From: Octopus vulgaris
Lineage: Eukaryota
Direction of reading: 5' to 3'
Assembly (NCBI GenBank): GCA_951406725.2
Contig: OX597819.1
Span: forward strand, 46,438,001 to 46,502,000
Length of the DNA stretch: 64,000 bases
In this document: positions 253-36,086 of the stretch, piece by piece
Layout: each line of letters opens with the position of its first letter
Numbering within the stretch: position 1 is the first letter of the stretch
Made by a program: the position numbers and the translations under genes
The notes under the pieces: model-generated
The model's database searches: none
Seen by the model: only the letters and a program-made list of their open reading frames with translations
Told to the model about the DNA's origin: nothing

Positions 253-303
253 TTTGCCAAAATATTTTCGTCGCTTTGAGACCGCGACCTGATCACTGAC
301 AAA
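253..303 (-). ncRNA. Minimal type-I hammerhead-like motif with G3-C8 core variant
   Basis: Minus strand: stem I UUUGUCA/UGGCAAA, core GUGAUCA + extra G, stem II GUCGC/GCGAC, GAA, palindromic stem III AAUAUU, H17=U. Confidence 0.6.
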
Positions 304-321
304 ATTCCGTGCTGCATCTCT

Positions 322-373
322 TTTGACAGTGATCAGGTCGCGGACTCAAAGTGAAGAAAAATATTTTGACAAA
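322..373 (+). ncRNA. Decayed second copy of the G3-C8 hammerhead-like motif
   Basis: TTTGACA-GTGATCA-G-GTCGC...GTGAA-GAAA-AATATTT-TGACAAA; stems I and II carry mismatches. Confidence 0.45.
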
Positions 374-461
374 TTAAATTTAAATGTTGAAGTCAATCTA
401 ACGGTTTTTGTGTGTGTTCTTTAAATGTCTTATAAACACTTTCCACGCTGCAATTGTTGAC

Positions 462-870
462 ATATATATATATATATATATATATATATATATATATATA
501 TATATATATATATATATATATATATATATATATGTATATATACTGTAAATTTAGGTTGAATACTTGATAAGTGTAAGCACCTGTATATGCCAGATAGTGG
601 CAGAGGTGAGAGAGAATATATCAAATAAAATTAAGAACATAACACGTTTACCGCGATATCCTTTGTGTTCTGTTTTTAATTTTGTTTTATATATATATGC
701 ATGTATATATATATATATATATATATATATATATATATATATATATATATATATACATATATATATATATGCATATATATATATATATATATATATATAT
801 ATATATATATATATATATACATGTGTTTATGTGTGTGTGTGTGTGTGTGTGTGTGTGTTTGTTTGTTTGC
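462..870. repeat. (TA)n and (TG)n microsatellites
   Basis: Dinucleotide runs read directly, with a ~150-bp non-microsatellite interruption. Confidence 0.9.
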
Positions 871-1519
871 GGGCGTTTGTGTGTGTTGGTGGGGATCCAC
901 ATTGACTCCGTCTACAAAATTCATTCATAACGAGAATAGTAAAATATACTTGCCCGAAACCATGCGATTGTAAACCGAGATTATTAGCCACACAGCCATG
1001 TCTACGCTCCAAATACAAAGTCTCTCTTTTTTTTTAATAATTCGCTCAATTCTCTTCCCGCTCAGGTTGATTTCAACCATAGACCACGCGGATATTAAGT
1101 TTGGCCAATCTGGCCGACATCTTTCTTCAATATCTCCAATCTTGGAGGGTCATAAAGGGGTCACAGACACTTCCCCTCCACCCTCATAAAATAAACATCA
1201 TCAACAATAACAAAAACAGCAACAATAAATAACTAGAATAAATAATTATAAAAAAAAAACTATGTTGTTACCCATAACAATGAATATTGTTTCCAATATA
1301 GGATGATATAGCGTGGTATATTTTGGTGTGATGTATTAATACGTATTATATAGTATGTTGTGATGGTTTGTGTAGTGTTATACGAGGTAGAAAACGGGAT
1401 AAATACGTGTAAATCCCGGTTGGGTGCCAAAAGATTTCTTATTTTTTATTACGTTCAATGGATAACGTTTTAATAGATATAGTCTGCATGACTACATCGG
1501 GACTACGGACACAAACACG

Positions 1520-2124
1520 TGATTTTTTTATGTGTATATAAATCTTTGTACATATATATTTGCACACATACAAATATATGCGATTGTGCGCGTGTGTGTG
1601 TGTGTGTGTGTGTGTGTGTGTGTGTGTGTGTGTGTGTGTGTGTATTTGTGTGAGTGTATTGTGTGCGTGTGCATGTGTGTGTCTGTCTTTGTGTTTGCAT
1701 GTATATGCATGTGTGTGTATGTATATATATATATATGTGTTCCTCAAAAGACATACACGTATACGTACACACTTGTGCACATACATATATATACACTCAC
1801 GAGCATTCATACAAATGCACATATACACCTATATCTTTATGTGTGTGTATGTATACGCACATATATATATACATATATATATACACACACACATATATAT
1901 ATATATACATACATACATATATATATGTATATATATATATATATGTCTGTATATATATATATGTATGTGTATATATATATATATATGTGCGTATACATGC
2001 ACACATATATAAGCACACGTATATGTATATACATAAAACATACGCATGCACGTAGACATACACATAAAGATATAGGTATATATGTGCATTTGTATGAATG
2101 CTCGTGAGTGTATATATATATATA
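1520..2124. repeat. Compound (TG)n/(TA)n/(CA)n microsatellite containing a ~60-bp inverted duplication
   Basis: 1785-1844 is the near-perfect reverse complement of 2060-2119. Confidence 0.85.
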
Positions 2125-2338
2125 GTTAATCCAAACAAGAAAACAGAGAAAAAAAAGAGAAAAAAACACAGCAACGCAGGACGTGGAACAATTAAAGTAT
2201 TATTGACGCTCAGGAAAGAAGGGAAGGAGGGTTTAACGTTTCGAGCGGAGCTCTTCGTCGGAAACAAGGAGAAGGGAAGATCCCAAGGAGGGAAGACAGA
2301 GGAGAAAATATTTGAGCTGGTGGTGCTCAAGAGATCAC
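2125..2338 (-). mobile_element. Short HHR-bearing PLE-like element (family also at 25891-26097 and, truncated, at 43412-43515)
   Basis: Shares CCTGAGCGTC-AATAATACT...TTCCACGTCCT...GATTAACT tail with the other copies; flanked by (TA)n. Confidence 0.75.
2231..2265 (-). ncRNA. Minimal hammerhead motif (U4C variant)
   Basis: GUUU-CCGACGA-A-GAGC-UCC-GCUC-GAAAC-GUU-AAAC: 4-bp stem I, 4-bp stem II, ACGU palindromic stem III. Confidence 0.7.
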
Positions 2339-2384
2339 TATATATATATATATATATATATATATATATATATATATATATATA

Positions 2385-2805
2385 AGTTCAACTCAGGCAG
2401 ACTACGATTGGTGTATCCATACACGGATTTAATAAAAGGAATTGTCTAAAATGTGTATTAATACATTCAAATTGTAGGGATATAGAAATATAAAAATACA
2501 TACGAATGTTAAAAATATGCAAGGACAAATAAATATATAGATTTATAAATGTATATATGAAAACGCGGATGAGGATAATGAATTATGGAGTCCAGGGAAT
2601 AATAAATGTTCACAAAGAGCTTTTTGTACCATACTTAAGTGAAATGAAATATTCCTACGATCGTTTCAAGGGTTCAATCCGAGAGTATAAGTGAATCTTA
2701 CGATTCACTTCGAAGGAGTGCCCTCCCCCATCATCAGGTAAAAGAGAAGAATAGTGCTTGTGCCAGAAATGTGTTTATTTGTTAAACACATTTCTAAAGA
2801 AAATT
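2385..2805 (-). mobile_element. Short HHR-bearing PLE-like element in (TA)n
   Basis: ~420-bp non-microsatellite segment bounded by TA runs and containing an intact HHR core. Confidence 0.55.
2652..2741 (-). ncRNA. Hammerhead motif with intact core and expanded stem II
   Basis: UUAC-CUGAUGA-U-GGGGG...CCCUU-GAAAC-GAUC-GUA-GGAA; internal 9-bp hairpin at 2689-2710; one stem I mismatch. Confidence 0.7.
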
Positions 2806-2954
2806 TATATATATATATTATATATGTTGGGCGCAGGCCGAGTGCTTAGAAAGTTTGCGGACGAGAGTTCCGATCCTACTGCGTAGGATCTTAGGTAGAT
2901 CTAAGACTTACATCGGTAACCAAAGTATAGATTTCCATCGGATGGCTTGCATCT

Positions 2955-33971: not shown

Positions 33972-34168
33972 TTATTATTATTATTATTATTATTATTATT
34001 ATTATTATTATTATTATTATTATTATTATTATTATTATTATTATTATCATTATTATTATTATTATTATTATTATTATTATTATTATTATTATTATCATTA
34101 TTATTATTATTATTATATTATTATTATTATTATTATTATCATTATTATTATTATTATTATTATTATTC
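33972..34168. repeat. (TTA)n microsatellite
   Basis: Read directly. Confidence 0.95.
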
Positions 34169-34174
34169 ATATAC

Positions 34175-34395
34175 ACTCAACAGATTAGACTGTTGGAAAA
34201 GAAAAGAATCCTAACATCGGGTTACAACATGTTGCCTTAGATGTCAAGAACCCTCCTATCTGGTTACAGCAAGTAATTTTCGATGCCAAGAACCCTCCTA
34301 AGTATCCTATCTGTCCTTAATAATACTGTTTTCTGCAGCTGCACTAAACTGGGTTTTATGCTTATTTCCTCTTTCCATCAGTTCAGATCTTTAGA
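34175..34395 (-). mobile_element. R4/Dong-like 3' end fragment
   Basis: Translates ISIKPSLVQLQKTVLLRTDRILRRVLGI; between TTA runs. Confidence 0.75.
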
Positions 34396-34407
34396 GATTA
34401 TTATTAT

Positions 34408-34620
34408 CAAGGCGGCGAGTTGGCAGAATCGTTAGCATGCCGTACAAAATGCTTAGCAGCATATTGTCCGTCCTTACGTTCTGAATTCAAATTCCGCCGT
34501 GGTTGACTTTGTCTTTCATCCTTTAGGGGTCGATAAATTAAGTACCAATGAAGCAATGGGGTCAGTGTAATCGACTAGTTTCCTCCCACAAAATTTCAGG
34601 CCTTGTGCCTATAGTAGAAA
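34408..34620 (+). mobile_element. SINE family C, full length, with (AAT)n tail
   Basis: AAGGCGGCGAGTTGGCAGAATCGTTAGC...TTCAAATTCCGCC...CCTTGTGCCTATAGTAGAAA. Confidence 0.85.
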
Positions 34621-35204
34621 TGATAATAATAATAATAATAATAATAATAATAATAATAATAATAATAATAATAATAATAATAGTAATAATAATAACAACA
34701 ACAACAACAACTATTATTATTATTATTATTATTATTATTATTATTATTATTATTATTATTATTATTATTACTATTATCAACATCATCATCATCATTATCA
34801 TTACCATCATCAGCATCATCAGCAGCAGCATCATTTTTGACATAAGAAGTTTGAAAATGCAGATGAACCGGTCCTTACAACATTACGTACTCTAGGCTAT
34901 TGGTTTTAGTACGGGCGTAAATTATGCTAGAATTATCTGCAGCTGGAAATGGCTTCATTTGGTGAACATAAATATATACAACTACGAAACTTAGTTCTGT
35001 TCTTTGTTTTTTTGTTTTTTCGTGCTGCTTTCTCAAAATACTAACAAATTAAAGGAGGAGTAAATATCGTTAAGTTAATCAGGAGTACGCAGAAGTGAGT
35101 TGCACTTCTAGACAGTGTGAGAGAAAAGCCATCAATATTATCAAGTGATTACATATATTGAGTGCGCAATTATTTCTGATTTATGGATTAACTGATTAAC
35201 GAGA

Positions 35205-35805
35205 GTGATGAAAATCAAATATCCAATCAACATCATGGTATTTAGAATGATCACTAGTGATGGCGACGTTATGCCTCCATACATCTTCCTACACGGCCTC
35301 TCACTCAACATGGAGGCCTACATCAAGTGCCTGGAGGCGGCAGTCCTGCCCTGGGTCAAGAGGGTGTCTACTGGAAGAACCTATGTCTGGCAACAGGACT
35401 CTGCACCATGCAACACAAGCAGAAGAACCCAGTCATAGCTGTCAAACAATTTTTGCGACTAAATCACACCTAACAAATGACCACCTAACACTCCAGACTG
35501 TAAACTCCTTGATTAGTATGTGTAGAGCGCAGTTGAGCAAGAGACCAACATTTTCTCCTTGTAACACCAAAGATGACCTGAAGGCAAGGATTATGGCTGC
35601 ATTCACCAACTTAAACAAGGAGACAGTCCAGAAGAATTGCAGGAGATTCTGGAGTCGTCTGGAAGCCGGGGTTGAAGCCAATGGCGATTTTATTGAATAT
35701 ATTTGCTCATTAGTATTTCAAGATATGTTTTTGTAATTTTGGTAAATATATCTGTTAAAGTGAAATATCGCGTAATTTGGACAACAGTTTATTCACCGCA
35801 CCCTG
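35205..35805 (+). pseudogene. maT/mori-type (DD37D) Tc1/mariner transposase, 3' part with right TIR
   Basis: YVWQQDSAPC ... PPNTPDCKLLD with 37 residues between the second and third D; ends EANGDFIE; terminus CACCGCACCCTG + TA; in-frame stops. Confidence 0.9.
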
Positions 35806-35811
35806 TATTTA

Positions 35812-35943
35812 TTCAAAGTTTCCATCAAAGCAACCCAACATAACAGGGGCAATCTCAGAATTATGGAAGCTGCCCTTATAAACAAATTGAGAGCAGCCAC
35901 TAACAACATGAAGGAACTACACGAAGCGGACTGGTTGCTATAG
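35812..35943 (+). pseudogene. C-terminus of a Penelope-like GIY-YIG endonuclease domain
   Basis: FKVSIKATQHNRGNLRIMEAALINKLRAATNNMKELHEADWLL* fits the GIY-YIG R..EA..I......N end; followed ~100 bp later by an HHR as in PLE pLTRs. Confidence 0.7.
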
Positions 35944-36046
35944 CAATACCATTCCGCGCTTGTAACCTTCCTCCTTTTTGCCCTGTCGCCCCCTCCCGCC
36001 ACACACAAATCTGAGCAACAGCCTTTTCCAACTACCACCGTTCCGA

Positions 36047-36086
36047 ATGTCCTGAAGAAGGGATTTTCACCCCGAAATATAGAAAT
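36047..36086 (+). ncRNA. Minimal hammerhead motif in PLE pLTR
   Basis: ATGTC-CTGAAGA-A-GGG-ATTTTCAC-CCC-GAAA-TATA-GAAAT; core intact, one stem I mismatch. Confidence 0.7.

Follow-up and report, generated by a model that had tools for sequence, protein, structure and literature searches.

The DNA described here, called the window throughout, is a 64,000-nucleotide (nt) stretch of the Octopus vulgaris genome (GenBank assembly GCA_951406725.2, contig OX597819.1, positions 46,438,001 to 46,502,000 of the forward strand). It is microsatellite-dense, has a GC content of about 35%, and carries fourteen hammerhead ribozyme (HHR) motifs between positions 253 and 36,086, which an earlier note had ascribed to short, unrelated elements colonizing microsatellites. 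Direct reading found all fourteen folds at the coordinates and on the strands given in that note, each with a type-I core and a palindromic or near-palindromic stem III, and all are members of genome-wide repeat families (Table 1). Judging from the sequences around them, nine motifs, those of families A, B3, C, D, G and I, come from the 3' ends, inverted or truncated at the 5' side, of Penelope-like elements (PLEs) that code for a GIY-YIG endonuclease. Families E, F and H fit non-autonomous retrozymes, being circularly permuted non-coding units with PLE-style truncation and inversion.

Table 1. Hammerhead-bearing elements and associated features of the window. Positions are those of the window; substitutions refer to the window copy. 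UTR, untranslated region; pLTR stands for pseudo-long terminal repeat and ORF for open reading frame.
Feature	Position	Strand	Remarks
Family A, inverted 5'-truncated PLE 3' end	245..319	-	HHR 253-303, G3-C8 core (GUGAUCA), stem III AAUAUU; passes strict descriptor
Family A, head-to-head partner	321..458	+	HHR 322-373, stem II damaged; end at (TA)n
Family B1 short element	2113..2338	-	HHR 2231-2265, U4>C; without ORF link
Family C, truncated PLE 3' UTR	2385..2780	-	HHR 2652-2741, long stem II, stem III ACGAUCGU
Family D, inverted HHR and tail	7772..7911	-	HHR 7871-7912
Family D, tRNA-like head, 3' half (B box)	7910..7954	+	Truncation point inside head
(AAT)n inside family D 3' UTR	7956..8192	+	Split by unrelated insert at ~8035-8119
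Family D body and tail	8192..8345	+	HHR 8241-8286, stem III ACGU
Family E, part of ~495 bp non-coding permuted unit (retrozyme type)	10569..11025	+	HHR 10798-10867, A14>U
Family F, ~335 bp non-coding permuted unit	12795..13176	+	HHR 13040-13067, stem II mostly lost, whole in relatives
Family B3, truncated 3' end of PLE with Cys-rich linker	14837..15030	+	HHR 14905-14940, family-wide U6
Family G, inverted truncated pLTR	23686..23780	-	HHR 23715-23775
Family G pLTR and tail	23781..23971	+	HHR 23805-23865; end at (TA)n
Family H, 1.26 units of 534-bp non-coding permuted repeat	25176..25850	-	Flanked by two (TA)n tracts; intact HHR 25456-25537, stem III ACAAUUGU
Family B2, ~215 bp short element, fixed 5' start	25892..26106	+	Between (TA)n tracts; HHR 25964-25998, G12>A; without ORF link
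GIY-YIG endonuclease frame, C-terminal end (family I)	35812..35943	+	
Family I 3' UTR and tail	35944..36221	+	HHR 36047-36086, stem III AUAU

The genome (2.8 Gb, 227 contigs) was searched with each element and the flanks of the matches were read locus by locus. Numbers of first-look candidates quoted below are not copy numbers. The loci read per query are its best matches and not a random sample, which must be held against the family assignments.

To score the motifs, a descriptor made up of the HHR core, stems I and II and a palindromic stem III was run at strict, medium and relaxed settings. The window gave 2, 4 and 8 matches, respectively, against means of 0.06, 0.31 and 1.19 in dinucleotide shuffles (300-nt blocks), and the observed count was reached by none of 120 shuffles at any setting, so that the motif density on which the earlier note had built survives comparison with shuffled DNA. 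The three settings combined recovered eight of the fourteen motifs; the relaxed one added two matches, at 3926 and 31922, to which no family was traced. Only the motifs at 253-303 and 25456-25537 passed the strict descriptor, most window copies being decayed through substitutions (at 2231, 10798 and 25964; Table 1) or stem damage (stem II broken at 322 and mostly gone at 13040, one stem I pair broken at 2652). The six motifs falling outside the descriptor (322, 2652, 7871, 13040, 23715 and 23805) can be recognized only through their families, in which most copies have an intact core and of which they are damaged or atypical members. A scan of 740 kb of flanking DNA that did not demand a stem III palindrome nevertheless met a perfect one in 17 of 22 matches, versus one of eight in four shuffles.

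Family alignments confirmed the core. The letters C3-U4-G5-A6-N7-G8-A9 / G12-A13-A14, with A15.1-U16.1 and H17, are the majority in nine of eleven family sets. The two that depart are A, where G3 (62 of 63 copies) and C8 (54 of 63) form a compensated swap, and B3, where position 6 is U in 33 of 33 copies and also in copies with long ORFs. Common variants arise at one core position, the free position 7, in families A, B3, D, F and H. G12 is lost in 12 of 31 B2 copies and 8 of 28 I copies, presumably by CpG decay. Read by eye, stems I and II are paired with sequences that differ between families (B2 GUUU/AAAC versus B3 CUUU/AAAG), and the stem variants of family F keep pairing (GUCUG/CAGAC, GCCUG/CAGGC, GUUUG/CAAAC). 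One might take the folds for accidents of AT-rich, repeat-rich DNA, since only two of fourteen pass the strict descriptor and since, in the Rfam scan of the window, HHR families are absent from the best 150 of 541 rows, which are dominated by microsatellite miRNA matches. With the shuffles never matching the observed counts, palindromes turning up unasked and cores intact across eleven families with different stems, this explanation is hardly conceivable.

In A, B3, C, D, G and I the longer copies all continue into coding sequence for reverse transcriptase (RT) and GIY-YIG, which bears out the link to this machinery of PLEs drawn in the earlier note. A GIY-YIG frame lies about 1 kb upstream in 5 of 30 long loci of family A, the 3' UTR between being microsatellite-rich. 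Endonuclease sequence precedes B3 in 14 of 30 loci (one being the query locus, and two apparently duplicates); a 500-amino-acid (aa) frame with YIDD and YIG motifs sits directly upstream of B3, and the B3 HHR ends each of the eight long ORFs fetched. The C HHR has a 140-aa endonuclease frame upstream and follows endonuclease matches in several loci. In family G an ORF start follows in 3 of 30 loci and an endonuclease end precedes in locus L528. Within the window, the family I HHR follows the stop codon of a GIY-YIG frame, correctly picked out as a relic in the earlier note (35812-35943), and relatives reach varying lengths into the endonuclease. In A, C and I the endonuclease side of the ORF was the one read. 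A second proposed relic, of an RT at 4790-5090, was not confirmed: its best match covers 13 residues (E 0.07).

The shape of the copies is that of PLE insertions. In the coding families the 3' ends fall at a fixed site or at two such sites, the 5' ends vary and head-to-head inversions are common (inverted pairs in 8 of 30 family A loci); A, B3, C, D, G and I show an HHR within the pLTR, incomplete tandems, 5'-truncated copies in inverted orientation and an optional tail, all of PLE type. These data bear on the earlier reading of the motifs as nine independent groups of short, non-autonomous ribozyme retroelements that target microsatellites. Such elements would account for the shortness of most copies, for the fixed 5' start of B2 with nothing common upstream in 30 loci, for the lack of an ORF in E, F and H, for the pile-up of D copies at an internal head (see below) and for the (TA)n tracts adjoining H, E, B2 and G. 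The continuation of A, B3, C, D, G and I into coding sequence refutes the proposal for nine of the fourteen motifs, and it also fares badly with the staggered 5' ends of A, G and I and with family D, whose ends lie away from (TA)n and whose (AAT)n is internal. Taken as a whole it is improbable; what survives is that E, F and H fit non-autonomous elements and that the short D copies behave like one.

Profile searches weigh against the assignment of these ORFs to PLEs. Pfam gave no RT match for the 500-aa frame or for an 806-aa frame described below, and a sub-threshold GIY-YIG match for the 500-aa frame only; for four PLE frames and one homologue nothing rose above the cut-off, and PDB returned no match. 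With Pfam support this weak, the ORFs are assigned to PLEs by their motifs, by the order of their domains and by element architecture. From the appearance of their motifs, family D may be of Poseidon type and B3 of Neptune type. The best named homologue of one PLE protein from the genome is from Argonauta. Three PLE protein queries returned 1336, 8405 and 16756 first-look candidates, and the genome is rich in PLEs.

The 806-aa frame, open through RT and GIY-YIG with YRDD and YIG motifs, lies at L336:1987-4404 (near 50.46 Mb) and belongs to a young family (copies 95-97% alike) that has an HHR of its own with stem III AUGGCCAU. At this locus its 5' end directly abuts a copy of another coding family, J, at that family's usual 3' end; the junction may be a template-switch chimera of two PLE families. 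This family was considered as the carrier of the family H ribozyme and rejected, the match belonging to the adjacent J copy. A sister family of I (loci L066, L070, L074, L077, L078, L082 and L089) has a U3-A8 core, so that the PLE families of this genome include all three core types, C3-G8, U3-A8 and G3-C8. At least six additional ORF-linked HHR families have long stem II inserts and stem III palindromes of 8-9 nt (e.g., L334, L342, L349, L357, L376 and L395).

Family D differs in its layout. The parent element has both RT and endonuclease frames. When 30 loci were selected purely by ORF sequence, the D HHR region followed the ORF end in every one, with the head or a remnant of it present in all; D was therefore rejected as a stand-alone short interspersed element (SINE). 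A 73-nt head begins 20-30 nt after the stop codon; next come (AAT)n, then the HHR and lastly a tail in which no run of four T occurs. The head carries tRNA landmark bases in register together with A and B boxes, the A+B pattern being present in five of seven whole heads versus none of 3500 head shuffles and none of 20000 shuffled 73-mers. The abundance of each part was profiled by counting exact 22-24-letter probes genome-wide, with positions given relative to the first head base, G1. In these raw counts, uncorrected for unequal decay and with a +2 probe that tolerates CpG changes, numbers change gently along the ORF (546 at -394, 741 at -198 and 831 at -27) and then rise four-fold exactly at the 5' edge of the head (3293 at +2; 2931 at +29); a second step of similar size spans the (AAT)n tract (7504 at +104). 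Among 41 head-bearing copies not selected by ORF, 19 start at -7 to +1, 21 inside the head and one upstream. From the step in the counts and these start positions, about three quarters of head-bearing copies begin at the head.

The short D copies thus behave like a non-autonomous sub-element, and head and short copies together suggest a SINE-like sub-element of the PLE dependent on RNA polymerase III (Pol III). It seems somewhat likely that the head drives Pol III transcripts that are copied by the PLE's own RT, giving rise to the excess of copies starting there. The short copies share with tRNA-derived SINEs the head length, the A and B boxes and a defined 5' end, and lack detectable homology to a tRNA gene or model. 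Several results speak against a tRNA-derived promoter: Rfam found no tRNA match in two copies of the head, ARAGORN called no gene in 15 D loci (nor any in the window), the predicted fold of the head is not a cloverleaf, and the probe counts carry the uncorrected decay just mentioned. The step could instead mark a processing site, such as an RNase P-like cleavage of the tRNA-like domain, or a place on full-length PLE RNA where RT is prone to drop off or to switch templates. Six of 32 copies selected by their body start exactly at G1, where RNase P would cut, many D 5' junctions are inversion junctions, and the counts step up by a similar factor across (AAT)n. Yet several copies retain 3-5 parental bases 5' of G1, as expected of a Pol III start; if structure blocked RT, the block should fall on the structure's 3' side and not at its 5' edge; and the A and B boxes are intact in five of seven whole heads while the acceptor and T stems read by RNase P are broken. 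We consider this alternative rather unlikely and retain Pol III transcription from the head as the working explanation.

In families E, F and H each unit holds a single type-I HHR, and no PLE frame is attached. Units measure 534 bp in H, ~455-495 bp in E and 320-342 bp in F (in 3 of 25 loci). H copies are 98-99% identical (1716 first-look candidates, with the best copies on many contigs) and comprise from under one to about 3.5 units per strand, and across 30 loci they have nothing in common beyond the unit. Two fixed sites account for their 3' ends, their 5' ends vary, and inversions are found in 13 of 24 loci. E and F are older units, built in the same way. Two PLE frames found near F copies and tried as its parent proved to be nested neighbors, one of them ending in G. 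An older relative of H, about 80% identical and with the same inversion pattern, was noticed at L383:805-1214 and represents an earlier wave of the family.

Occurring as they do in short tandem arrays, H, E and F might be pLTR-derived satellites, enlarged through local tandem duplication or unequal crossover and dispersed with no RNA step, a route discussed by Li et al. (10.64898/2026.07.22.740005). Local growth sits poorly with the many near-identical H candidates and the scatter of the best copies over contigs; moreover, fixed 3' ends at two sites, variable 5' ends, head-to-head inversions and (TA)n flanks reproduce the insertion pattern of the coding PLEs. We regard a purely DNA-based spread as quite improbable and keep to retrozymes for these families. 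Contigs from four runs, none of them on record as RNA, cover the H unit with its end joined to its start; tandem DNA would give the same.

A possible relative of H is coding family J, which has endonuclease sequence upstream in 6 of 25 loci. Both have the same stem III (ACAAUUGU), and their other stems differ in a compensatory manner (stem I UUUUGG/CCAAAA in H versus UUUCGG/CCGAAA in J; stem II GCUA/UAGC versus GUAC/GUAC). The whole-unit alignment scored 205.5, with a maximum of 202 among 200 shuffles; this speaks against a kinship of the entire units, and since the score barely exceeds the shuffles the relationship extends no further than the HHR and the following 50 nt or so. When two H copies were cofolded in silico, an intermolecular 8-bp stem III formed with stems I and II retained, which is the dimeric form; for the window copies of A, B2 and D the lowest-energy cofold was not of this form.

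Families B1 and B2 are less easily placed. They are only about 70% like the B3 pLTR, and no parent ORF came to light: nothing common lies upstream in 30 selected loci and 20 unselected copies. B2, with a fixed 5' start and no common upstream sequence in 30 loci, showed inversions in none of 30. The missing ORF link of both families and the missing inversions of B2 tell against a PLE origin. (TA)n lies on both sides of B2 in 10 of 30 loci (L091-L120), and B2 may be a circle with (TA)n itself as the junction, or a pLTR behind an internal (TA)n. A further B1/B2 tail fragment, without HHR, was seen at 43415-43516 of the window.

Association with microsatellites was measured by looking for (TA)n no more than 25 nt away from either outer end, 5' or 3', for which the background is 2.8% per end. 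Seven overlapping or duplicate loci (L133, L134, L140, L145, L148, L037 and L043) were left out, and the 29 of 29 inversions that this survey gave for A were disregarded as an artefact of the reference set. At 5' and 3' ends, respectively, (TA)n was present in 20 and 18 of 24 H loci (at both in 16), 8 and 15 of 25 E loci, 18 and 19 of 30 B2 loci, 8 and 18 of 30 G loci, and 4 and 6 of 28 I loci; in D the figures were 0 and 1 of 30. H, E, B2 and G lie well over the background level. Other microsatellites lie inside the 3' UTRs, namely (AAT)n in D and (TG)n/(CATA)n tracts in A, B3 and G. With ends adjoining (TA)n and microsatellites internal to 3' UTRs, the elements likely land in (TA)n and also carry microsatellites with them. 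The colonization of microsatellites proposed in the earlier note thus applies to some families only, namely to the ends of H, E, B2 and G and not to those of D. An insertion bias towards microsatellites is known for some PLE clades (10.1101/2021.04.23.441226). Priming by microhomology with (TA)n was not adopted as an explanation, initiation at a site not homologous to the target being reported in PMC11167929.

Some further repeats of the window deserve mention. Its common repeats resemble octopus SINEs. A common SINE-like repeat is arranged in tandem at 45461-46459 (periods 92, 187 and 190). Decayed coding-like sequence at ~6000-7100 and 5430-5750 resembles the C-terminal part of a long interspersed element (LINE) with a restriction-like endonuclease, probably of Dong/R4 type, with two 3' ends adjoining (CATA)n. 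Directly upstream of the family I fragment, ~35150-35800 resembles a decayed Tc1/mariner transposase.

A mechanism can be proposed on the model of PAc, the Poseidon element of Anolis (Frangieh et al. 2024, PMC11167929), whose protein cuts a nick into AT-rich DNA and initiates reverse transcription at two sites inside the RNA downstream of the HHR; cleavage by the PAc HHR is protein-assisted and dispensable for insertion in vitro. In the octopus, reverse transcription from a nick would halt early, leaving short 3'-end pieces, and would often restart, leaving an inverted copy. The PAc priming model predicts that 3' ends fall at two fixed sites and that 5' ends vary but almost always leave the HHR in place, and A, G and H show this. 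Through the short palindromic stem III, one HHR could pair with another, and the dimer would cleave. H, E and F would be copied from multimeric or circular RNA by PLE protein in trans, and H may have arisen from the pLTR of coding family J, or may mimic it. Altogether, it is very probable that nine of the fourteen HHRs belong to the pLTRs of six coding PLE families, likely as pieces from aborted reverse transcription, and that the three in non-coding units were likely copied in trans. The pattern of H fits the view that retrozymes are non-autonomous PLE derivatives (PMC7229834; 10.64898/2026.07.22.740005). A broader picture is plausible but tentative: a PLE would have taken up a tRNA-derived Pol III promoter within its pLTR and would breed its own ribozyme-bearing SINE, copied by the PLE's RT and outnumbering the parent about 4:1, H could pair with coding-PLE RNA as a hetero-dimeric HHR, and one PLE lineage would run on a natural G3-C8 core.

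Much of this has precedent. Cervera and de la Peña (2014; PMC4209133) described dispersed single and opposite-strand minimal HHRs from truncated PLEs, and the metazoan PLE HHRs reported there have an extra base after A9 and cleave weakly as dimers. The octopus motifs are alike in the type-I fold, the tiny palindromic stem III, the extra base after A9, the many families per genome, the predominance of single motifs with some opposite-strand pairs, and the U3-A8 variant. They differ in that several families have 8-9 nt palindromes and long stem II inserts; in the available text of that paper there is no mention of cephalopods, of a natural G3-C8 or U6 core, or of a tRNA-like head. Non-LTR retrozymes (PMC7229834; 10.64898/2026.07.22.740005) likewise consist of non-coding tandem units with one type-I HHR each and kinship to pLTRs, with PLEs proposed as the mobilizer. 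H (534 bp) and E (~495 bp) exceed the 170-400 nt circles of PMC7229834 and lie within the 51-972 bp of Li et al. (10.64898/2026.07.22.740005). Compared with known retrozymes, the octopus insertion pattern (fixed 3' ends, 5' truncation, inversion and (TA)n flanks) constitutes structural evidence for copying by PLEs.

PAc shares with the octopus elements two adjacent 3' end sites, AT-rich targets and an HHR upstream of the RT start (PMC11167929). In the laboratory, a C3G/G8C double change partly restored cleavage by the PAc HHR (PMC11167929), and family A carries naturally the G3-C8 core made in that experiment. The PAc HHR overlaps the ORF start (PMC11167929), whereas several octopus 3' UTRs are 0.4-1.2 kb long and microsatellite-rich, that of D with a tRNA-like head. 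The nearest known case for D is that of the schistosome SM-alpha and Sj-alpha SINE-like repeats (PMC6765202), short dispersed repeats with a Pol III promoter followed by a hammerhead. These are described as stand-alone SINE-like or satellite sequences; in contrast, the promoter-like head of D lies inside the pLTR of a coding PLE, which makes the short element a sub-sequence of its own mobilizer.

In tRNA-derived SINEs mobilized by LINEs, a head of tRNA length with A and B boxes and a sharp 5' end is combined with a 3' region common to the autonomous partner. D resembles them in all these respects, and differs in its GIY-YIG PLE partner, the lack of a poly-A or short-repeat tail, the inversions and the internal ribozyme.

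Among the literature matches listed there was no paper on octopus hammerheads or on a tRNA-like head in a pLTR, and one paper on G3-C8 hammerheads concerned engineered variants; variants with G3-C8 or U6 may already appear in Lünse et al. (2017). In a recent annotation of octopus repeats, Penelope families are described as active and many SINEs are left unclassified, and the word ribozyme is absent from its main text (PMC13282606). Abundant minimal HHRs from truncated PLEs in an invertebrate, and non-coding retrozymes, are already known and are extended here to a new host. Going by the sequences, what appears to be new is the tRNA-headed pLTR, a retrozyme (H) with PLE insertion geometry, the G3-C8 and U6 core variants, and a stem III common to H and a coding PLE.

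If the reading of family D is true, a PLE-dependent, tRNA-headed SINE-like element nested in its own mobilizer would be a new route of SINE birth. The youth of family H, combined with its PLE-type insertion geometry, makes the mobilizer of animal retrozymes directly testable with purified PLE protein. Natural G3-C8, U3-A8 and U6 cores in one genome offer ready tests of core tolerance in dimeric, protein-assisted hammerheads. Finally, these data suggest that PLE ends may be hidden among the octopus repeats now listed as unclassified SINEs, and that PLE 3' UTRs may spread microsatellites as well as landing in them.

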